This document shows positions 8,297 to 64,000 of a stretch of DNA of 64,000 nucleotides, one piece after another. A program made the position numbers and the translations under genes. Positions within the stretch are counted from its first letter, which is position 1, and every line of letters begins with the position of its first letter. The DNA comes from a virus (Duplodnaviria; Heunggongvirae; Uroviricota; Caudoviricetes), in IMG/VR virus record IMGVR_UViG_646311924_000007, positions 32,001 to 96,000 of that record. One strand, written 5' to 3'. The notes under the pieces are model-generated. The model did not search any database, was not told the DNA's origin, and was given only the letters and a program-made list of their open reading frames with translations.

Positions 8297-8402
8297 TATA
8301 ACCTCACCTGCCTTATAACCCATTTAGGGTACATATTTTCGCCTTTAAAAAAAAGAGGTTATTAGATCCAATTGTGTATTTATTAAGCATATAATGCTCT
8401 AA

Positions 8403-8419
8403 TAAATTTGTATTTTTAA
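8403..8419 (+). promoter_or_regulatory. C1 repressor operator-like site (AATGCTCTAATAAATTT)
   Basis: 16/17 match to recalled P1 C1 operator consensus ATTGCTCTAATAAATTT; in divergent intergenic region. Confidence 0.6.
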
Positions 8420-8723
8420 GTCGCGAATGCTATCTTTTCGCATCATATTGACCTTTTAATCGTTCAGGCTTATAGTTCCGCCGTCGTAGCAAATTCTGCG
8501 ACCGGGTTTAGCAGCCTGAATGATTGTGCGGACAGCCGCAGATATCCGATATTGCGGTATTTTTGTGTCCGTAAAACCGCGTTACGCCCAAATTATGGTG
8601 GGGCGTGATGGGGAGGCTTCGGCCTGCTGGTTTCACAATCGCCAGTCTGCTAACCCCGTCACGTCCTGCCACCTGTTTAGCAGCGGGTAGCAGGTTGTTA
8701 AACCTGATTGTGAGGCCGTAACT

Positions 8724-8945
8724 ATGGTTAATGCCAATCCTTGCGCACGCCAAGAATTCATCTGGCGTTTCTATTCCTGTAAAAAACACCACTATCACTT
8801 CGTTATCGCAGCAACAGAAGACGAAGCACGCTCTCAATTGCCTGATGGCCCCTGCATTTTTACTGCCCGTTTTTCAACTAACTCGCGCAATTCACTTAGT
8901 TACTGGAACCTCCCCTTCTCTGCCGACGTTCAGGGGGGTTTATGA
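8724..8945 (+). CDS. Icd-like small protein (host cell division inhibitor family)
   Basis: 73-aa ORF with EFIWRFYSC..HYHFVIAATEDEARSQLPDGPCIF; stop overlaps ATG of next gene (ATGA); paralog at 61646. Confidence 0.65.
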   Translation: MVNANPCARQEFIWRFYSCKKHHYHFVIAATEDEARSQLPDGPCIFTARFSTNSRNSLSYWNLPFSADVQGGL

Positions 8946-9979
8946 AAAAACCTCTCGTCACCCGTAATGACATAGCCGAAGCTATCGCCCTGCATACTGC
9001 CTGTATGCCGACACGGGAGATCCCCGGCGCAATTGCCAACTATTTCATGATAACCAGACGTTTTTATACCCGAACAGATAAGGCTGTGATCAACAAGCTA
9101 CTGATAGCCGAGATCAGGGATTATTTGATTGAACAAGGACGTCTACGTTACGCAACAGTGGCAGCAGAAATGAGAAAGGAGGCACATAGAATGACCGGTA
9201 ATAATTTGAATGTTGAAAAAACAGCACCTGTTACGTCAGCTACGCCAGCACCAGCCGTGAATATCATCCCCAACACCGGAGACACAATCGACAGCCTGAC
9301 ACTGTTAAAGATGGTCAATGAAGCGCGTAAGTTATGTGGGGAACCAGAGGTTCGGAACAACAAATTCATAGAAAAAATACTCGATGAGCTTGATGGTGAG
9401 CACTACACAAAAAGTGTAGTGGAAAAAATGAACAAAACATCAATGCTTGTCATAACCATGACCTACAAACAAGCCCTGCGAGTCGCCGCACGCGAATCAA
9501 AAGCCGTCCGCCGTTCGCTGATCGACAAACTGGAAGAATTGCAGCAGGCAAACTCCCCTACCCCATCGATCCCCCAAACATTACCAGAAGCTCTACGCCT
9601 GGCTGCCGAGTTGGCAGAACAGAAAATGCAGTTGGAACAACAGCTGGTGGCCGCAGCCCCTAAAGTCGATTTTGCCGACCGGGTATCAGCGGCTAATGGA
9701 ATCCTGATCGGGAACTTTGCAAAGGTCGTTGGACTTAAGCAAAACGCCCTTTTCTCATGGTTGCGCCAGAACGGCATTCTCATGGCTTTTGGTGCGCGCA
9801 AAAACGTACCGCGCCAACAGTACATCAACGCCGGATATTTCACGGTGAAAGAAGTGGTGCTGGATGATGAAGATGGCTACCAGATACGGCTGACGCCCCA
9901 ATTAACGGGTAAAGGCCAGCAGTGGTTAACTCGCAAGCTACTTGATGCTGGTTTGTTAAAACCAGTAGCAATAGGTTAA
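8942..9979 (+). CDS. antirepressor-like protein with KilA C-terminal (KilAC/ANT) domain
   Basis: C-terminus LPEALRLAAELAEQK..APKVDFADRV..GKGQQWL is near-identical in motif to the KilA C-terminus at 10144; translationally coupled to icd-like gene. Confidence 0.65.
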   Translation: MKKPLVTRNDIAEAIALHTACMPTREIPGAIANYFMITRRFYTRTDKAVINKLLIAEIRDYLIEQGRLRYATVAAEMRKEAHRMTGNNLNVEKTAPVTSATPAPAVNIIPNTGDTIDSLTLLKMVNEARKLCGEPEVRNNKFIEKILDELDGEHYTKSVVEKMNKTSMLVITMTYKQALRVAARESKAVRRSLIDKLEELQQANSPTPSIPQTLPEALRLAAELAEQKMQLEQQLVAAAPKVDFADRVSAANGILIGNFAKVVGLKQNALFSWLRQNGILMAFGARKNVPRQQYINAGYFTVKEVVLDDEDGYQIRLTPQLTGKGQQWLTRKLLDAGLLKPVAIG

Positions 9980-10057
9980 CAAAAGAAAAAAACCTGCCAG
10001 CAAACTGGCAGGTTTCTGAGCAGATCGACCAACCCGATCTGGATCGAGTCAGAAAAA

Positions 10058-10074
10058 TTTGCTCTAATAAATTT
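10058..10074 (+). promoter_or_regulatory. C1 operator-like site upstream of kilA-repL (Op53 position)
   Basis: TTTGCTCTAATAAATTT, 16/17 to consensus, ~70 bp upstream of kilA start. Confidence 0.65.
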
Positions 10075-10143
10075 CGTTTTCTAAGTGCAAAGAATCACCA
10101 TTTCGAGCTGGTGATTGAAGGTTGATGCAAATTTGGAGAAAAA

Positions 10144-10944
10144 ATGCAACAAACATTCAATGCGGATATGAATATATCAAACCTTCATCAAAATGTCGAT
10201 CCTTCAACCACTCTGCCCGTTATTTGTGGTGTTGAAATTACGACCGACCGCGCTGGCCGTTACAACCTTAATGCTCTACACAGAGCGAGCGGACTCGGTG
10301 CCCATAAAGCGCCAGCTCAATGGCTAAGAACGCTGTCAGCTAAACAGCTCATCGAAGAGCTTGAAAAAGAAACTATGCAGAATTGCATAGTTTCGTTCGA
10401 AGGCCGTGGCGGCGGCACTTTTGCCCATGAATTGCTCGCAGTGGAGTACGCTGGTTGGATTTCTCCCGCGTTTCGGCTGAAGGTAAACCAGACATTTATC
10501 GACTATCGAGCTGGAAGATTACAACCTGCTATTCCGAAGAGCCTCCCAGAAGCTCTCCGTTTGGCTGCCGACCTGGCAGAGCAAAAGCAACGGCTGGAGC
10601 AAAAAATGCTGATGGATGCACCTAAAGTCGAATTCGCCGAACGCGTTGCTACCGCCAGCGGGGTTCTAATCGGCAACTATGCCAAAGTGCTCGGCCTGGG
10701 CCAAAACTATCTCTTCACCTGGTTGCGTGATAACGGAATTCTGATCGCAACCGGTGAACGCAGGAACGTCCCCAAACAAGAATACATATCCCGTGGGTAT
10801 TTCACCCTTAAAGAAACCGTGATCGATACAAGCAATGGAAGCAGGATTTCTTTCACGACTCGTATAACCGGCAAAGGTCAGCAGTGGCTGATGAAGCGAT
10901 TGCTTGATGCTGGTGTGCTGGTACCTGTCGCGGCAGCGCGCTAA
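10144..10944 (+). CDS. kilA: KilA (KilA-N plus KilAC domains)
   Basis: 266 aa, same length as P1 KilA; conserved KilAC C-terminus; followed by a 281-aa gene as in the P1 kilA-repL operon. Confidence 0.8.
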   Translation: MQQTFNADMNISNLHQNVDPSTTLPVICGVEITTDRAGRYNLNALHRASGLGAHKAPAQWLRTLSAKQLIEELEKETMQNCIVSFEGRGGGTFAHELLAVEYAGWISPAFRLKVNQTFIDYRAGRLQPAIPKSLPEALRLAADLAEQKQRLEQKMLMDAPKVEFAERVATASGVLIGNYAKVLGLGQNYLFTWLRDNGILIATGERRNVPKQEYISRGYFTLKETVIDTSNGSRISFTTRITGKGQQWLMKRLLDAGVLVPVAAAR

Positions 10945-12115: not shown

Positions 12116-12296
12116 TACAATCGTTGCGGGTGCTTGAGGCTATCTGCTTCAGGCATTACCCGAAAAGCAGATAGAAGAAAGCCCCAGATAACATTACGCG
12201 TCCTGCAAGACGCTTAACATTAATCTGAGGCCACATCTATGCTTAGCATACGTAGATTAGCCTCTTACCGACCAAAAGGTCAAGGAGAAGCAGGCT

Positions 12297-12452
12297 ATGA
12301 AGCAGCAAAAAGCGATGTTAATCGCTCTGATCGTCATCTGTTTAACCGTCATTGTGACGGCACTGGTAACGAGGAAAGACCTCTGCGAGGTACGAATCCG
12401 AACCGGCCAGACGGAGGTCACTGTCTTCACAGCCTACGAATCTGAAAGGTAA
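12297..12452 (+). CDS. hok: Hok/Gef-family membrane toxin
   Basis: 51 aa MKQQKAMLIALIVICLTVIVTALVTRKDLCEVRIRTGQTEVTVFTAYESER, close to Hok/SrnB/PndA; overlapping mok-like frame 12239..12445; GC-rich fold-back at 12459-12480. Confidence 0.8.
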   Translation: MKQQKAMLIALIVICLTVIVTALVTRKDLCEVRIRTGQTEVTVFTAYESER

Positions 12453-29200: not shown

Positions 29201-29319
29201 TCAGAGAGCTTTATCATGACAGTGGCTTCAGAGTGGAACCTCTTTTTGCCAGACGTTCTGTGTCTTGTAAGGGGGACACTCGAGGTGTAGCTCATGACGT
29301 TTTGGGTATATTGCTCTAA
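26278..29319 (+). CDS. dmt: bifunctional DNA methyltransferase Dmt (C5-cytosine MTase plus Dam-like N6-adenine MTase) carrying an intein
   Basis: GTG start overlapping hrdC stop; C5 motifs IV ([12 protein letters not shown], split), VI (ENV), IX ([16 protein letters not shown]), X (GNSMAIPV); Dam-like FKWAGGK and DPPY in C-terminal half. Confidence 0.85.
26509..27531 (+). mobile_element. intein with LAGLIDADG homing-endonuclease domain (341 aa) inside dmt
   Basis: Starts Cys (CFTAGHMVL), block B TTNDHPF, two LAGLIDADG motifs ([22 protein letters not shown]), ends [16 protein letters not shown] then +1 Cys; removal rejoins GGTP and CQAFSIAG. Confidence 0.8.
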
Positions 29320-29326
29320 TAAATTT
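29310..29326 (+). promoter_or_regulatory. C1 operator, perfect consensus ATTGCTCTAATAAATTT
   Basis: 17/17 match; overlaps last codons and TAA stop of dmt, upstream of tRNA/plp/ban region. Confidence 0.7.
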
Positions 29327-29500
29327 ATTAGTGTAATATCACCTCAATGAATCGTGATTTATAGAGCGATTTAGCTGTTAGCCGCGACAGGCGCGGCGGT
29401 AAGCATGGCTGGGCCTAGTCCTCCCAGACAAACCACCGAGTTGCCAGGTTGACCATGCGCCTAAGTGGCAACGCCGAAGTGCGTTACGAGCGTCCAGTTT

Positions 29501-29991: not shown

Positions 29992-30066
29992 GATGGTGTA
30001 GCTCAGCGGTAGAGCAGTTGGCTGTTAACCAACTGGTCGGTAGTTCGAATCCACCCACCATCGCCA
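29992..30066 (+). tRNA. tRNA-Asn (anticodon GUU)
   Basis: Hand-folded cloverleaf: acceptor GATGGTG/CACCATC, anticodon loop CTGTTAA, T-loop TTCGAAT, discriminator G, encoded CCA. Confidence 0.75.
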
Positions 30067-30071
30067 CTTTA

Positions 30072-30158
30072 GGGGAGTTAGTCCGTAGGGGTAGCGGGGT
30101 AGACTGTAAATCTACTGTCATTGCGACTCGGGTGGTTCGACTCCATCACTCCCCACCA
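30072..30158 (+). tRNA. class-II tRNA-like gene, anticodon GUA (Tyr-like)
   Basis: Acceptor GGGGAGT/ACTCCCC, anticodon arm GTAGA-CTGTAAA-TCTAC identical in loop to E. coli tRNA-Tyr as recalled, long variable arm, encoded CCA; D-arm region slightly irregular. Confidence 0.55.
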
Positions 30159-30162
30159 CATT

Positions 30163-30238
30163 GCCGATTTAGCTCAGTTGGTAGAGCAGTCGCTTTGTAA
30201 GCGAATGGTCAGCGGTTCGATCCCGTTAATCGGCACCA
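30163..30238 (+). tRNA. tRNA-Thr (anticodon UGU)
   Basis: Acceptor GCCGATT/AATCGGC, D-arm TAGCTCAGTTGGTAGAGC, anticodon loop TTTGTAA, T-loop TTCGATC, encoded CCA. Confidence 0.7.
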
Positions 30239-43279: not shown

Positions 43280-44166
43280 TGCCACTGCTGGATAAGCTGC
43301 GTGAGCAGTACGGGGTCGGACCGGTATGCAGCGAACTGCATATTGCCCCGTCAACGTATTACCATTGTCAGCAACAGCGACATCATCCGGATAAACGCAG
43401 TGCCCGTGCGCAGCACGACGACTGGCTGAAGAGAGAGATACAGCGCGTATACGATGAAAATCATCAGGTGTACGGTGTGCGTAAAGTCTGGCGTCAGTTG
43501 TTACGGGAAGGAATCAGGGTGGCCAGATGTACAGTGGCACGTCTCATGGCGGTTATGGGACTTGCCGGTGTTCTCCGGGGTAAAAAGGTCCGTACGACCA
43601 TCAGCCGGAAAGCCGTTGCCGCAGGCGACCGCGTAAACCGTCAGTTCGTGGCAGAACGACCTGACCAGCTGTGGGTGGCTGATTTTACTTACGTCAGCAC
43701 ATGGCAGGGCTTCGTCTATGTGGCGTTTATCATTGATGTGTTTGCCGGATACATCGTGGGGTGGCGGGTCTCATCGTCTATGGAAACGACATTCGTGCTG
43801 GATGCGCTGGAGCAGGCGTTGTGGGCCCGTCGTCCGTCTGGCACCATCCATCACAGCGATAAAGGCTCTCAGTATGTGTCACTGGCCTATACGGAGCGAC
43901 TAAAAGAAGCCGGATTACTGGCATCAACAGGGAGTACAGGCGACTCGTATGACAACGCGATGGCTGAGAGCATCAATGGTCTTTACAAAGCGGAGGTAAT
44001 ACACCGTAAGAGCTGGAAAAACCGTGCAGAAGTGGAACTGGCCACACTAACGTGGGTGGACTGGTATAACAATCGACGATTGCTGGGAAGGCTGGGCCAT
44101 ACTCCTCCGGCAGAAGCAGAAAAAGCTTATTATGCTTCCATCGGAAACGATGATCTGGCAGCCTGA
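43276..44166 (+). CDS. IS3-family transposase OrfB (DDE)
   Basis: 296 aa with DDE core; overlaps orfA in -1 frame at GGAAAAAATG. Confidence 0.85.
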
Positions 44167-44709
44167 GTTCACAGATAAAACACTCTCCAGGAAACCCGGG
44201 GCGGTTCAGACCGGATATAACCGATGATCTGTTCTATCTGGATTTGGACACGGTTATTGCCGGTGATATACGCCCAATCCTTGAGAATCCACCAACCTGC
44301 TTCACCATGCTTAGGGATTTTTACCATCCACAATATCGTGGTAGCGGTGCCCTGTGGATACCAAATAGTGTAAAAGCACATATCTGGAGTTCATTCTGGC
44401 AAGATCCGGAAGGTTGGATTGCTCGTTGTGTCACTACTGAGTGCTGGGGTGATCAGGGGTTCTTACGGAAGGTTATGGGCGATGATACACCAGCATTTCA
44501 GGATCTGTATCCAGGATGGTTTGTAAGTTACAAGGCCGATGTTGTGGAACCTGGTTCAAAATATGCGAGCGCGCGTTACTCCAGGGGGAATGGGGCATTA
44601 CCAAAGGACTGCCGAATAATCTTTTTCCACGGCAAACCGCGGCCTCGCGAAGTGTCAGAGGATTGGCTTCCCCTCATTAGCTCGTTTTTTGAGCGAGAAT
44701 CAGAATAAT

Positions 44710-44726
44710 ATTGCTCTAATAATTCC
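44710..44726 (+). promoter_or_regulatory. C1 operator-like site (ATTGCTCTAATAATTCC)
   Basis: 13/17 to consensus with perfect first 13 positions; abuts stop of upstream gene. Confidence 0.5.
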
Positions 44727-44734
44727 ATATTTTT

Positions 44735-44764
44735 AAAACGTGATGTACACTCATCACGTTTTTT
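44735..44764. terminator. palindromic hairpin with flanking A/T runs (bidirectional terminator)
   Basis: AAAACGTGATG-TACACTC-ATCACGTTTTTT; stem 44738-44745/44752-44759. Confidence 0.5.
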
Positions 44765-44775
44765 ATTAGAGCAAT
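44759..44775 (-). promoter_or_regulatory. C1 operator-like site in inverted orientation
   Basis: Reverse complement reads ATTGCTCTAATAAAAAA (14/17); forms an inverted operator pair with 44710 around the hairpin. Confidence 0.45.
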
Positions 44776-44789
44776 CTATAAGGTGCACT

Positions 44790-45008
44790 ATGTGGCCATT
44801 CCGACGGAAATATCACTACTGGCTGATCGCCTTTGTTACGCCGACCGGCGGTATCAGGCATGTCATCACCAGGTATCGCAACAAGAGACTCACCTTAGCC
44901 AGAATTTTACAGGCTGCCATAGGTGAGGGACTGGATACAAATTGCGTAGTCCTTCCACCTTCATACTTAGGAAAAATGACCGAAGCACAAGCTAATACGG
45001 AACTTTGA
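44790..45008 (+). CDS. small protein at the icd position of an immI-like operon
   Basis: 72-aa ORF ending 2 nt before next gene; not similar to the two Icd-like proteins elsewhere in the window. Confidence 0.35.
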   Translation: MWPFRRKYHYWLIAFVTPTGGIRHVITRYRNKRLTLARILQAAIGEGLDTNCVVLPPSYLGKMTEAQANTEL

Positions 45009-45009
45009 A

Positions 45010-46272
45010 ATGAGCACTTCAGCACAAAACCAATCAATCGAAAATGTTTCTATCCCTGATGTCCTGAATGCCGGTATCCCGGCCATTATCCAGAACATCC
45101 GAGCCGCGCAACGCCGCGTTAGTTGTGATGACCTCACAGCGCGTTTTTTTGATAATGCGGTTCAGTCAGCGGAGATGCTTCACGCACAGCTTATTGATGT
45201 TTATAACGCAGAAGCTGATAGCCATAACTCCCTGGTAGATGCAGCTGAAAATATGCAGTTGGATCTCGGTCTGAAGGGTAAAGAAATTGAAGAGCTTCAG
45301 CTGGAAATTGAACATTTGAAACGCCAGCAACAGGACGCGATCGAAGATGCGACGCATGACGCCAACCAGCGTGCTGATAATGCCGAACGTATAAGCATTG
45401 AGCTGGAAACAAAACTCAATGAAATGACCGCGATGGTTGTGCTGCGGAACTCACAGATTTCAACTCTAAAATCTCAATATAAAGAGATCATGAAACTTGA
45501 TCCTTTTAACCTTGAGAAACGCTATAACAAAGCCAAAAGCGAGCGACAGGAACTGCGTAAGCAGATTGTCGACCTTAACCAACAGCTCAAAAAGGCTATT
45601 AAAGATGCAAGCGAGGCGCGCGTGGCATTTGCTAATAAAAAAGCAGAGGTTACCGAGCTGGTTAATGAAAACGCCAAATTTGCGACGCTCAAGAAGGAAA
45701 TGTATGGCATTACTGAGCGCCGTTTCCCTGCAAGCAAACTCCATCCGACGTTAGGGCAAATCTCATTCTTCCCGCGCCTCCTGGCTTATGGGATCTCATC
45801 GCCTAAAGAGTTCAATAACGAGCGTCCTTATATCGTTTCTAAGCTGGACTTTGCTTATCAGTTCTGCTGCGACATGGGCTATGCCATTGATATACGTATC
45901 AACGAATGGTTGATGCCAAACTTCCAGCCGTTGGCCATTTTCCGCGAGTTCCAGCCGGAAGGTTGGGTAGAGTTCTTCCATGAAATGATCTGTAAAGAGA
46001 TGGAAAGCCGCCGCCCGGAACTGGTCCGCCGTGTCGAGTGGGCGCAAGAGGTTATGTTGGCAGATGCAGAGCTACCGTTCGAACCGGAATTCATTGATGA
46101 ACTGGCCAATAAAGGGCTGCATACCCTGTTTGATGTGGTTACCCGCCGTCATGAGCAGTTGGTTGTCGAATTGGGTTTAGAGGAAACAGCGGCAAGAAGA
46201 CTTCTCGATGTTTGCTATGCACGTAGCGATGCATGGGAAAAAGAGAACGGCGGCACTATTTACGTTCGCTGA
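45010..46272 (+). CDS. coiled-coil protein at the antirepressor position (Ant1-like?)
   Basis: 420 aa with long coiled coil; behind operator pair and small upstream ORF like P1 c4-icd-ant. Not verified. Confidence 0.4.
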   Translation: MSTSAQNQSIENVSIPDVLNAGIPAIIQNIRAAQRRVSCDDLTARFFDNAVQSAEMLHAQLIDVYNAEADSHNSLVDAAENMQLDLGLKGKEIEELQLEIEHLKRQQQDAIEDATHDANQRADNAERISIELETKLNEMTAMVVLRNSQISTLKSQYKEIMKLDPFNLEKRYNKAKSERQELRKQIVDLNQQLKKAIKDASEARVAFANKKAEVTELVNENAKFATLKKEMYGITERRFPASKLHPTLGQISFFPRLLAYGISSPKEFNNERPYIVSKLDFAYQFCCDMGYAIDIRINEWLMPNFQPLAIFREFQPEGWVEFFHEMICKEMESRRPELVRRVEWAQEVMLADAELPFEPEFIDELANKGLHTLFDVVTRRHEQLVVELGLEETAARRLLDVCYARSDAWEKENGGTIYVR

Positions 46273-61310: not shown

Positions 61311-61327
61311 TTTGCTCTAATAAATTG
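61311..61327 (+). promoter_or_regulatory. C1 operator-like site (TTTGCTCTAATAAATTG)
   Basis: 15/17 to consensus, 4 nt after pacB stop. Confidence 0.55.
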
Positions 61328-61645
61328 TGTTTTTTAACTACCGATGTTACATTGAGCCTGACCTCTTGCGCCTTGAGGCATTTTCGGTTTATGCTTATCA
61401 GGCACCTCATTAAAACGGGTGCCGGGATTGGCCTCCCGCTTAAGTCTAAGGCGATACAGACGCCGCTCGCGTCTTTTTTTGTATCGGCGTACACGCACAC
61501 CTCTACAATGGTGGGCTGTATGGGGCTACCTTCGGGTAGGCTGGTTACCTTGGACGCCAGTAAGGCCAACTCCGTACAGTCCACCGCCAGCAAGATTGGT
61601 CTCTTCTGCGGTGGTTACATACCAACGTCTAAGGAGGCTGCCAAT

Positions 61646-61867
61646 ATGGCTACTATCCCTACCCCAACTCATCCTGAATTTATCTGGCGCTTTTACTCCT
61701 GCCAAAAACGTCACTATCACTTCGTTATTGCACCAACAGAAGATGAGGCTCGCTCTCAGCTTCCTGACGCCCCATGTATTTTCTCTGCCCGTTTTTCCAC
61801 TGATTCACGCAATTCTCTCAGTTACTGGTGCCTCCCTGTTAACGCTTCTGCTCAGGAGGGACTATGA
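61646..61867 (+). CDS. Icd-like small protein, paralog 2
   Basis: 73 aa MATIPTPTHPEFIWRFYSCQKRHYHFVIAPTEDEARSQLPDAPCIF; stop 61865-61867 sits 3 bp before the IS end. Confidence 0.65.
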   Translation: MATIPTPTHPEFIWRFYSCQKRHYHFVIAPTEDEARSQLPDAPCIFSARFSTDSRNSLSYWCLPVNASAQEGL

Positions 61868-61912
61868 GAATGAACCGCCCCGGGTTTCCTGGAGAGTGTT
61901 TTATCTGTGAAC

Positions 61913-62803
61913 TCAGGCTGCCAGATCATCGTTTCCGATGGAAGCATAATAAGCTTTTTCTGCTTCTGCCGGAGGAGTATGGCCCAGCCTTCCCAGCAAT
62001 CGTCGATTGTTATACCAGTCCACCCACGTTAGTGTGGCCAGTTCCACTTCTGCACGGTTTTTCCAGCTCTTACGGTGTATTACCTCCGCTTTGTAAAGAC
62101 CATTGATGCTCTCAGCCATCGCGTTGTCATACGAGTCGCCTGTACTCCCTGTTGATGCCAGTAATCCGGCTTCTTTTAGTCGCTCCGTATAGGCCAGTGA
62201 CACATACTGAGAGCCTTTATCGCTGTGATGGATGGTGCCAGACGGACGACGGGCCCACAACGCCTGCTCCAGCGCATCCAGCACGAATGTCGTTTCCATA
62301 GACGATGAGACCCGCCACCCCACGATGTATCCGGCAAACACATCAATGATAAACGCCACATAGACGAAGCCCTGCCATGTGCTGACGTAAGTAAAATCAG
62401 CCACCCACAGCTGGTCAGGTCGTTCTGCCACGAACTGACGGTTTACGCGGTCGCCTGCGGCAACGGCTTTCCGGCTGATGGTCGTACGGACCTTTTTACC
62501 CCGGAGAACACCGGCAAGTCCCATAACCGCCATGAGACGTGCCACTGTACATCTGGCCACCCTGATTCCTTCCCGTAACAACTGACGCCAGACTTTACGC
62601 ACACCGTACACCTGATGATTTTCATCGTATACGCGCTGTATCTCTCTCTTCAGCCAGTCGTCGTGCTGCGCACGGGCACTGCGTTTATCCGGATGATGTC
62701 GCTGTTGCTGACAATGGTAATACGTTGACGGGGCAATATGCAGTTCGCTGCATACCGGTCCGACCCCGTACTGCTCACGCAGCTTATCCAGCAGTGGCAT
62801 CAT
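61913..62803 (-). CDS. IS3-family transposase OrfB (copy 2)
   Basis: Translation identical to copy 1 OrfB. Confidence 0.85.
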
Positions 62804-63126
62804 TTTTTCCAGAGGCGGTCGAACTCCGCCTTCGCAAAATAAGCGGAAGCCTGGCGAAGGATATCGTTACTGCGGCGCAGTTCACGATTTTCACGTTCCA
62901 GCTCTTTCAGACGCTGACGTTCAGCGCTGGTGAGCCCACCATCACCGCCCCCGGTATCCCGCTCATGCTGGCGAACCCAGACACGCAGAGTCTCCGGCGT
63001 ACAGCCAATCTTTGGGGCAATGGAACAAATTGCCGCCCACTGTGAGTCATATTCATCCTGACTTTCCAGAACCATACGAATCGCCCGCTGACGGACTTCG
63101 GGGGAAAAACGAGTATTTTTAGTCAT
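62800..63126 (-). CDS. IS3-family transposase OrfA (copy 2)
   Basis: Translation identical to copy 1 OrfA. Confidence 0.85.
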
Positions 63127-63206
63127 CCTGTTTACCTCTTTCTCAGGGAGTTTAGTCTCCAGGATTTCCGGGGCGGTTCAGAACGTCATTAGTCACCCGT
63201 GAAGAG

Positions 63207-64000
63207 ATGATCGAGGCAATTGAACAGCACACAATCTGTATCAGCACCAGGGATATACCTGGCGTTATTGCCAACTACTTCATGATCACCAAACAACTTT
63301 ACCGGAGAAAGGACAAGAACGCGGTTCACCGTATCCTGTTGTCTGATATCCGCGAATACCTGCTCGAACAGGGTCATCTGAATTACGCAACCGTCGCAGC
63401 CGAAGCACGCAAGGAGGCACACAGAATGAAAGCAAATAACGTTAAATTAGAAAAAATTCATGCACCTTCAGTTCAGGAATCGGAGCTGGTGGTTGTTCAG
63501 AATCAGTCTGATGAAATTCCCGTTCTGGAATGGCAGGGAGTGCGTGTAGTGACAACCGAGACTCTTGCGAGAGGGTATGGGACAGAAACAATCCGTATTC
63601 GCCAAAATCATCATGAGAACAAAGTACGCTTTGTTGAAGGGAAGCACTTTTTCAAAGTTGAAGGAGAATCATTGCGCGAGTTGAAGCACAGAGTAGCTTT
63701 AAACTACTCTGTAAAAATTGCTCGCAATGTTCGCTCACTCACCCTCTGGACAGAACGCGGCGCAGCCCGCCACGCTAAAATGCTCGAAACCGATCAGGCA
63801 TGGGCATTCTTTGAAAAACTGGAAGACAGCTACTTCCGACAAAAAGAACAGCAACCGATCGCAATCCCCCAGACGCTTCCTGAAGTCCTACGCCTGGCTG
63901 CCGAACTGGCTGAACAAAAGCAACTTCTGGAACAGAAAGCCCACCAGCTAAATCAGCAGCTGGTGGCCGCCGCTCCTAAAGTCGATTTTGCCGACCGGGT
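63207..64000 (+). CDS. antirepressor-like protein with KilAC domain, paralog of 8942..9979; runs off window end
   Basis: ATG 63207; N-terminal CISTRDIPGVIANYFMITKQLY parallels CMPTREIPGAIANYFMITRRFY; C-terminal LPEVLRLAAELAEQK...APKVDFADR matches KilAC. Confidence 0.6.
   Translation, partial: MIEAIEQHTICISTRDIPGVIANYFMITKQLYRRKDKNAVHRILLSDIREYLLEQGHLNYATVAAEARKEAHRMKANNVKLEKIHAPSVQESELVVVQNQSDEIPVLEWQGVRVVTTETLARGYGTETIRIRQNHHENKVRFVEGKHFFKVEGESLRELKHRVALNYSVKIARNVRSLTLWTERGAARHAKMLETDQAWAFFEKLEDSYFRQKEQQPIAIPQTLPEVLRLAAELAEQKQLLEQKAHQLNQQLVAAAPKVDFADR

Follow-up and report, generated by a model that had tools for sequence, protein, structure and literature searches.

The heteroimmunity of P1 and P7, which operates through two c4 alleles, is a classic example of antisense-RNA specificity, and a small processed RNA also controls the immA antirepressor operon of N15, an operon that contains icd. 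In the immI operon of P1 and P7 a C1 operator is followed by the sites a1/b1, the C4 RNA, the sites a2/b2 lying over the icd ribosome-binding site, an ATGA overlap between icd and ant, and nested ant1/ant2 starts, and according to the annotation of the P1 record the expression of ant depends on the translation of icd. Here we analyze a stretch of 64,000 nucleotides of viral DNA (positions 32,001 to 96,000 of IMG/VR record IMGVR_UViG_646311924_000007; hereafter the window, with positions counted from its first letter), in which a sequence-only reading had recognized three modules composed of an operator, an icd-like gene and an antirepressor gene, at 8403-9979, 44710-46272 and 61311-64000. We find only two. 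We hold with high confidence that modules 1 and 3 are C4-gated icd-ant cassettes and that module 2 is not, and we consider it likely that the window as a whole is best explained by two C4-antisense-gated icd-ant cassettes, each placed behind a C1 operator, a judgement that mixes firm cassette identity with less sure function.

A second group of systems relevant here comes from outside the P1 family. The IsrK of Gifsy-1 is a leader of 77 nt that ends at a terminator, and read-through of it yields the transcript isrK-orf45-anrP (Hershko-Shalev et al. 2016, PMC4825925). Supplied in trans, IsrK raises anrP translation more than 100-fold, the changes G28A and G31A abolish this effect, and AnrP in turn switches on antQ; moreover, a processed 'orf45' RNA of ~80 nt (STnc1160) accumulates (PMC4825925). 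Transcription of both IsrK and STnc1160 is reported to be high in lysogens of Gifsy-1 under every condition tested (PMC7067206), and Hfq binding by IsrK together with trans-activation of a downstream antirepressor is known only for Gifsy-1 (PMC4825925). The same study calls SeqA of P4 a structural homolog of IsrK (PMC4825925). The P4 CI RNA (seqA/seqB/seqC) is similar to C4 in that a small processed leader RNA pairs with repeated targets in its own transcript and so keeps lytic or anti-immunity genes silent, as the small RNA of N15 also does, but it differs from the C4 cassettes in working through transcription termination and in having no antirepressor. A 2025 review treats IsrK and c4 as separate, and our literature search found no paper linking the two.

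At the level of annotation, extra cassettes in P1 relatives are already known. Venturini et al. noted in passing an extra ant gene in RCS47 and pTZ20_1P, as well as homologs of icd-ant1/2 elsewhere in pSvP1 (PMC6906374), and a second c4/icd/antirepressor region was noted briefly for D6 and D6-like plasmids, elements which have only a homologue of the C1 repressor (PMC6799933). These are single-sentence annotation remarks, without analysis at the RNA level or of specificity, and our literature search found no description of the RNA-level anatomy, of distinct and reassorting specificities, of conserved operators or of stacking up to five cassettes. C4 and isrK are annotated side by side in one GenBank record.

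Results

Module 1 is the canonical immI operon

Alignment to P1 and its relatives showed that the DNA around the three modules is P1-like throughout, and on this evidence we assign the window to a phage-plasmid of the P1 family. A consensus scan of its 64 kb returned 12 C1-operator-like 17-mers against a chance expectation of 0.34. Those fronting the modules lie at 8393-8409, 44710-44726, 44759-44775 (minus strand) and 61311-61327, with 1, 3, 3 and 2 mismatches, respectively, so that the operators which the sequence-only reading had placed before each module are borne out as sequence matches. Features of the modules are on the plus strand unless a minus strand is given.

Module 1 (8393-9979) is the immI operon itself. 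Window positions 8300-10100 are 95% identical in DNA sequence to P1 48047-49852, and all the features annotated in the P1 record map onto the module. It opens with the C1 operator Oc4 (Op51; AATGCTCTAATAAATTT, 8393-8409), which has a single mismatch to the consensus and equals P1 Oc4 in both sequence and position, followed by the constitutive promoter P1c4 (P51b; TTGACC-17-TATAGT, 8448-8476), annotated in P1 and scored 10/12 in our promoter scan. The a1/b1 element (8470-8529), which is supported by the P1 annotation, by our site map and by the Rfam c4-a1b1 model (RF03163; 8470-8522, 55.5 bits), contains a1 (TTAGCAG, 8508-8514) and b1 (GATTGTGC, 8522-8529), both placed by the site map. The C4 antisense RNA follows at 8591-8676 (Rfam RF01695, 69.6 bits at a gathering cutoff of 45) and takes the canonical fold at -45.4 kcal/mol. 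Its loop b' (TCACAATC, 8633-8640) has its exact complement in b2 (GATTGTGA, 8706-8713), which overlaps the icd Shine-Dalgarno sequence, and its a' (CTGCTAA, 8647-8653) finds an exact complement in a2 (8677-8683), also annotated in P1. The complementarity of 8633-8640 and 8706-8713 had been noticed from the letters alone and compared to c4-type pairing; it is indeed that of the C4 b' loop with b2 over the icd Shine-Dalgarno. Aligned with P1, P7 and D6, module 1 has the loop alleles of P7 (a' CTGCTAA, b' CACAATC); those of P1 are CTGTCAA and CACTAAC.

Downstream of the target sites lies icd (8724-8945), whose 73-amino-acid product scores 52.7 bits with the NCBIfam Icd-like model and whose DNA is 95% identical to that of P1. 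Through an ATGA overlap it is coupled to ant1 (8942-9979; 345 amino acids), annotated in P1, with KilAC at its C-terminus (Pfam ANT, 3.4e-31; phrog_63, anti-repressor Ant) and an in-frame ant2 start at 9191. Coupling, intact ant1/ant2 and KilAC are thus all present in module 1.

Module 3 is a second C4-gated cassette between pacB and c1

In P1 and P7 the convergent gene c1 follows pacB after 25 bp, and it is this gap that module 3 (61311-64000) occupies; the 3' end of pacB just before it is 99.7-100% identical to P1 and P7. A C1 operator-like site (TTTGCTCTAATAAATTG, 61311-61327) starts 4 nt past the pacB stop codon, its two mismatches both falling at end positions, and the ~30 nt that follow it resemble those after Op51. 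The site is kept in all pacB-c1 cassettes and is absent from D6-type loci. Further downstream, just before the IsrK start, we read from the alignment a putative constitutive promoter (TTGCGC-18-TATGCT, 61367-61396), the hexamers of which are conserved in P1-type and D6-type loci despite differing flanks and the position of which fits position 1 of the Rfam isrK model at 61402. A sigma-70 promoter scan of the plus strand called no promoter in the module 3 leader.

The leaders of the two cassettes belong to different Rfam families, c4-a1b1 (RF03163) in module 1 and isrK (RF01394) in module 3. The IsrK-type leader RNA (61402-61479) matches its model at full length (positions 1-77; 60.8 bits at a cutoff of 50), and the terminator scan placed an intrinsic terminator at 61458-61474 with a T run after it. 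Within this leader, a1 (TTGGCCT, 61428-61434; site map) is in a hairpin loop of the predicted fold, and the site map places b1 (GTCTAAGG) at 61444-61451. The C4 antisense RNA (61504-61591; Rfam RF01695, 75.9 bits at a cutoff of 45) takes the canonical fold at -41.6 kcal/mol and carries b' (CCTTGGAC, 61548-61555) and a' (AGGCCAA, 61563-61569). It is followed by a2 (TTGGTCT, 61596-61602) and by b2 (GTCTAAGG, 61627-61634), which overlaps the icd Shine-Dalgarno AAGGAGG. The order of a1, b1, b', a', a2 and b2 is identical in modules 1 and 3 and their spacing is nearly equal, with 14 and 16 nt, respectively, between a1 and b1, and 29 and 31 nt between a2 and b2.

The icd paralog of module 3 (61646-61867) encodes Icd3, a protein of 73 amino acids that is 81% identical to Icd1 and scores 49.8 bits with the NCBIfam Icd-like model, which both proteins pass; the paralogy proposed for these two proteins therefore stands. 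The icd stop overlaps the ant start at 61864 in an ATGA. Full-length Ant3, as judged from an intact homolog, contains ORF6N (2.5e-19) and ANT (4.7e-31) domains in Pfam searches, and like Ant1 it matches phrog_63 'anti-repressor Ant' over its full length. Compared with Ant1, intact Ant3 is 61% identical in the N-terminal extension that is specific to Ant1, 29% in the middle and 86% at the KilAC end. Taken together, module 3 is similar to P1/P7 immI in its C1 operator, a1/b1 sites, C4, a2/b2 over the icd ribosome-binding site, ATGA overlap and nested ant1/ant2 starts, but it differs in its pacB-c1 site, its terminated leader of the IsrK type, its loops (AGGCCAA and CCTTGGAC), its ORF6N middle domain and an insertion sequence (IS) in ant. 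The IS, the IsrK-type terminated leader, the a'/a1/a2 sites and the fact that the window ends inside the module 3 ant gene (ant3) all go beyond what had been read from the letters alone.

The antisense pairing covaries and is specific to each cassette

For modules 1 and 3, cognate loop/target duplexes were calculated at -7.2 to -10.1 kcal/mol, and pairs across the modules at -3.7 kcal/mol or weaker. There is thus no predicted cross-pairing of the two C4 RNAs, and by this calculation they should not cross-react. We then compared eight leaders of the IsrK type, namely those of the window, RCS47, JL22, two plasmids, D6, a Salmonella phage and the Stx phage P13374. In both a1b1:C4 and C4:a2b2, 120/120 cells pair, and 10 of the 15 pairs have changed on both sides. 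None of 500 shuffles reached the observed level, and slid controls paired in 22-52% of cases. This covariation argues that the antisense pairing is under selection.

For C4 genes of the P1 type, at least 118 loci in viral contigs matched our sequence pattern, and 111 P1-type genes were analyzed. Exact complements of a' and b' occur upstream and downstream at fixed offsets in all of the 111 listed, which cover at least 12 allele combinations, and non-cognate b targets were present in 0/666 comparisons among these same genes. The IsrK type adds at least seven further a'/b' combinations. We also observed that among the listed viral contig loci of the P1 type at least two a' alleles are crossed with at least seven b' alleles, and that each of the five common b' alleles is paired with both a' alleles among the matches listed. 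For one such reassortment, three places spread over ~200 nt (a1, a' and a2, or b1, b' and b2) must change in concert. In conjunction with the Rfam matches and the site maps, the covariation upholds the c4-type antisense reading for modules 1 and 3.

Where several cassettes reside in one genome, their (a', b') combinations were all distinct in 10/10 multi-cassette genomes examined (p ~0.055 against random draws). For b' alone the distinctness of co-resident cassettes was not significant (p = 0.25), and one contig uses the b' ATGTAC twice, with different a'. The orthogonality of co-resident specificities is suggestive only.

Module 2 is the pmgR-pmgS operon

Module 2 (44710-46272) is the known P1 operon pmgR-pmgS and is not of the immI type. 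The region is 97.4% identical to P1 81842-83839, the equivalent of the operon being P1 82152-83714 including the operators OpmgRa/b. OpmgRa (Op86a; 44710-44726) and OpmgRb (Op86b; 44759-44775, minus strand) are annotated in P1 and each have three mismatches to the C1 consensus. They precede pmgR (44790-45008) and pmgS (45010-46272), the product of which matches phrog_1660 'PmgS-like head morphogenesis' (1e-192). Only 64 nt separate the first operator from the pmgR start codon, and the leader of 200-300 bp that the sequence-only reading had assigned to every module therefore fails here. An Rfam scan found no C4-like RNA in module 2, even at E <= 10, PmgR falls below the NCBIfam Icd-like model and gave a non-significant BLASTP match to Icd (E = 0.89), and a Pfam search found no ANT domain in PmgS.

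That all three modules would be immI-like circuits, with pmgR and pmgS in the icd and ant positions of module 2, is on these data very improbable. The idea draws on the succession of C1 operators, a small open reading frame (ORF) and a larger one, and on a faint resemblance of PmgR to Icd around KKHHYHFVIA/RKYHYWLIAF. Against this the leader is short, C4 is absent, PmgR and PmgS fail the searches just given, and the operon is annotated in P1 itself, where C1-controlled operons are numerous and this is one of many, as the 12 operator matches in the window also illustrate. Module 2 is not immI-like because of its 64-nt leader, the lack of a C4-like RNA and its unrelated proteins; it had been correctly described as encoding proteins unrelated to those of the other modules, but their arrangement is not that of immI. 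As an analogue of immI it was rejected on the leader length, the C4 scan, the Icd-like model and the head-morphogenesis PHROG. Separately, we observed a long inverted repeat (44705-44775; fold of -30.8 kcal/mol, z = -6.9) whose outer arms are the two pmgR operators and which surrounds a perfect 11-bp hairpin with a T run behind it; this could be the pmgQ terminator doubling as the operator pair.

An insertion sequence splits ant3

The first 7 nt of an ant1-like gene (ATGAGAA, 61864-61870) precede an IS3-family element of the IS1203/IS629 type, 1310 bp long and inserted on the minus strand (61871-63180). Its ends read TGAACCGCC...GGCGGTTCA and form terminal inverted repeats starting with TGA; it is flanked by a target duplication GAA at 61868-61870 and 63181-63183, and it carries ORFs of 108 and 296 amino acids and an ALIL frameshift pseudoknot (Rfam, 121.5 bits). 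Matching records annotate the same IS as IS1203 family. The element splits ant3 after codon 2, and the rest of the gene (63184-64000), with the ORF6N middle and the start of KilAC, runs to the window end, which cuts it. A conserved ant2-like start with a Shine-Dalgarno sequence, within the Ant1-specific N-terminal extension, survives at 63426. In its intact homolog this module has the coupled icd, ant1/ant2 and KilAC; module 3 itself has icd and the ATGA overlap, with ant split.

Without the IS and the extra copy of GAA, ant3 is an open frame with 0/824 mismatches to the intact gene of NZ_CP027575.1, which encodes 372 amino acids and is followed after 32 nt by c1. The leader and icd of module 3 are likewise 100% identical to NZ_CP027575.1. 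Since both ant3 and the leader-icd region are free of differences from these intact copies, the insertion is recent; and since no plasmid of PLSDB and none of 5426 complete E. coli genomes has the IS/ant junction, it is also private to this element. Because ant expression in P1 is reported to depend on icd translation and the IS separates the two, the regulated antirepressor output of the cassette has probably been lost here, with leader, C4 and icd intact.

One might go further and regard module 3 as a dead remnant, in which the IS has abolished function and C4 and icd are drifting without a role. The cut after codon 2 does part ant3 from the promoter, from C4 control and from coupling to icd, and a second copy of the same IS in pmgQ suggests an element that is accumulating damage. 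However, apart from the IS, ant3, leader and icd match the intact copies without a difference, C4, leader and icd are themselves whole, the C4 alone could protect against a matching incoming cassette, and the ant2-like start at 63426 is still in place. We therefore regard a dead remnant as an unlikely account of the module. The second, identical IS copy (42899-44208, plus strand; GAC duplication) is in inverted orientation to the first, in pmgQ just upstream of module 2. The two copies are ~17.7 kb apart, and recombination between them could invert the segment from pmgR to pacB.

Cassettes of this kind are common and can be stacked

The module 3 leader and icd had matches in 428 PLSDB plasmids, the match covering 80% or more of the length in 273, and the 3' end of a P1-type pacB occurs in about 588. 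Roughly half of P1-like plasmids would by this measure carry the second cassette, a rough ratio of two separately counted sets. The pacB-c1 cassette is present also in the phages 673R5 (95.8% identical), RCS47 and JL22 (about 85%), the latter two with other loop alleles than those of the window. The 'unusual immunity layout' suggested for this element was hence an overstatement, as module 1 is textbook and a second cassette is shared with ~273 plasmids in PLSDB and with these three phages.

Two leader types recur across these genomes, the P1 type (c4-a1b1 followed by C4) and the IsrK type (isrK followed by C4). As in the window, D6 has one cassette of each. Three cassettes are found in plasmid p95JB1A, and five, at five backbone sites, in the E. 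albertii plasmid p06-3542 (NZ_CP034163.1). Each cassette of p06-3542 has a C1 operator ~200 nt upstream of C4, three of the five operators have no mismatch to the consensus, and no two of the b' loops are alike. The same plasmid has three genes for TnpB (RNA-guided endonuclease family), two of which adjoin cassettes. More generally, in all the P1-backbone cassettes examined, which occupy five genome positions, a C1 operator precedes C4 by 190-215 nt. The D6-type loci differ from the window in this respect: no site matching the P1 C1 operator consensus was found in those examined.

Module 3 suggests a link of the C4 circuit to IsrK and to lambdoid antirepressor loci

Leaders with isrK + C4, like that of module 3, are common among lambdoid phages, Stx-converting ones included, and are present in SfV and phiP27; in other phages too, isrK lies no more than about 25 nt upstream of a C4-family RNA, after which comes an antirepressor. 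In the two lambdoid loci that we examined, Gifsy-1 not among them, the antirepressor comes directly after the isrK/C4 leader with no icd in between, and the same a1/b1/a'/b'/a2/b2 logic and offsets are found with further specificities. Icd3 begins with the seven residues MATIPTP, much as lambdoid antirepressors behind such leaders begin with MATIPVL or MATVPTL, while the rest of the protein is a P1-type Icd, and this match would mark a recombination junction within the first ~10 icd codons (61646-61675). Because a lambdoid-type isrK/C4 leader is joined to a protein that is lambdoid-like at its N-terminus and of the P1 type in the remainder, module 3 looks like a chimera, in which a leader of the lambdoid type was placed before a P1-type icd-ant unit behind a P1 C1 operator.

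A different view of module 3 would be that of an IsrK-type activator circuit whose antirepressor targets the repressors of lambdoid prophages, or another factor, and not C1 of P1. Leaders of this type in Stx phages, SfV, phiP27 and the Salmonella phage stand directly before antirepressors of the Rha/ORF6N type, the MATIPTP start of Icd3 is lambdoid in character, the middle of Ant3 differs from that of Ant1 (29% identity), and in Gifsy-1 AnrP turns on antQ (PMC4825925). What speaks for C1 as the target is that a P1-type C1 operator stands before every such cassette on P1 backbones and is absent on D6 backbones, that Ant3 keeps the Ant1-specific N-terminal extension, the KilAC end and the full-length match to phrog_63, and that the cassette is immediately beside c1. 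Weighing these, we think an activator circuit with a target other than C1 improbable, and a little more so than the dead remnant considered above; a C4-gated cassette directed at C1 is the reading that we carry forward.

The comparison also bears on Gifsy-1. The leader of module 3 covers the whole isrK model with its terminator, and position 28 of isrK, the site of G28A, corresponds by the Rfam alignment to window position 61430, inside the a1 loop. The Gifsy-1 study reads the stretch homologous to C4 as the coding sequence 'orf45' and IsrK as an activator, with no mention of c4 or P1 (PMC4825925). By analogy with module 3, we infer that Gifsy-1 'orf45' is a C4-family RNA and that the short IsrK is an a1/b1 decoy for it. 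Annotated coding sequences (CDSs) over such RNA genes are found elsewhere. RefSeq places CDSs for a 39-amino-acid 'ash family protein' exactly over the C4 gene of IsrK-type cassettes (1722-1841 of locus L010, 1471-1590 of L012, 29278-29397 of L015 and 23418-23537 of L019), and isrK/C4 is also overlapped by gp120 and gp121 of JL22 and by the 'putative antirepressor' CDS of Salmonella phage 118970_sal3. Probably an RNA gene has been called as an ORF in these cases, and the same may be true of Gifsy-1 'orf45'. In the Stx phage P13374 we also observed a match to the Rfam family sRNA-Xcc1 (79.6 bits; 2823-2906 of locus L017), which overlaps the short CDS antB2 and has on one side the regulator gene downstream of isrK/C4 and on the other a second anti-repressor gene.

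Other features of the window

Beyond ant1, the operator Op53 (10058-10074, plus strand), found by the operator scan and annotated in P1, lies upstream of kilA (10144-10944, plus strand), which encodes KilA-N and KilAC domains according to both Pfam and the P1 annotation. At its C-terminus KilA shares 61% identity with Ant1 and Ant3, and a Pfam KilAC/ANT domain is common to the three proteins, as had been proposed. Just downstream of repL, positions 12128-12302 match the sok antitoxin RNA (Rfam, 114.8 bits), which implies a hok/sok-type toxin-antitoxin locus beside the lytic replicon; p95JB1A has a sok match at the equivalent place. Four tRNA matches, three strong and one weak (41.9 bits, 30072-30155), are found at 29992-30235 and 32184-32256, and an overlapping operator pair (29310-29337) lies near them.

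Discussion

From the order and complementarity of the sites, we propose that the transcript of each cassette presents first the decoys a1/b1, then the C4 RNA, and then a2/b2 covering the icd ribosome-binding site. Processed C4 would use its b' hairpin loop, together with the single-stranded a' next to it, to pair with a2/b2, and the pairing would block translation of icd and, by translational coupling, of ant, so that the antirepressor would be off in the lysogen. Because the C4 loop sequences of the two cassettes differ and should not cross-react, they would act as two independent locks on two antirepressors. In addition, if a superinfecting relative brings in a matching cassette, the element should silence that cassette too, and immunity would be wider as a result. 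In the second cassette many transcripts should stop early, since the leader ends in an intrinsic terminator, and would leave a short IsrK-like RNA with a1/b1; this RNA could titrate C4, as IsrK would do in trans in Gifsy-1. With the IS in place this cassette probably retains its C4 RNA and icd and is without regulated antirepressor output.

Several points weigh against this proposal. In the element itself ant3 is disrupted, and both c1 and the end of ant3 lie outside the window. Ant3 has an ORF6N middle that is only 29% identical to that of Ant1, and it might act on something other than C1. The promoter whose position suits the IsrK start is ~40 nt downstream of the operator, so that C1 may control only a weaker upstream promoter; this would correspond to the Op51/P51a arrangement of P1, and the promoter scan called neither of the two promoters in module 3. 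The leader terminator is without counterpart in P1 immI, and the dynamics of the circuit may differ accordingly. The distinctness of co-resident cassettes is only marginal against random draws (p ~0.055, and 0.25 for b' alone). Finally, RNA expression, RNA processing and C1 binding are for this element predictions from its sequence. That Ant3 acts on C1, that C1 binds the module 3 operator and that stacking widens immunity are, taken jointly, about evenly poised between holding and failing.

Extending the proposal to the family is more tentative still, and we give it slightly less than even weight: P1-family elements would stack from one to at least five differently keyed cassettes, each fronted by a C1 operator and with loops that reassort, the cassettes serving as key and lock in an arms race and the IsrK-type leader as decoy. 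If this is true, each cassette would be a key, in that its Ant would go unsilenced by a resident lacking the matching C4, and at the same time a lock, in that its C4 would silence incoming cassettes of the same type. The stacking would then be a record of an immunity arms race among related plasmid prophages. The Gifsy-1 locus of IsrK and 'orf45' would be re-read as a c4-type circuit, and tying IsrK to the c4 system would allow a simpler reading of the published IsrK genetics.

For the window, these observations amount to a textbook immI operon, a common accessory cassette that an IS has probably inactivated, and one operon that is not a cassette. If several independently keyed cassettes are routine in the family, immunity and induction would be combinatorial and not binary among these common carriers of resistance and virulence genes, and the coexistence, exclusion and induction of plasmid prophages might be predictable from short loop sequences.

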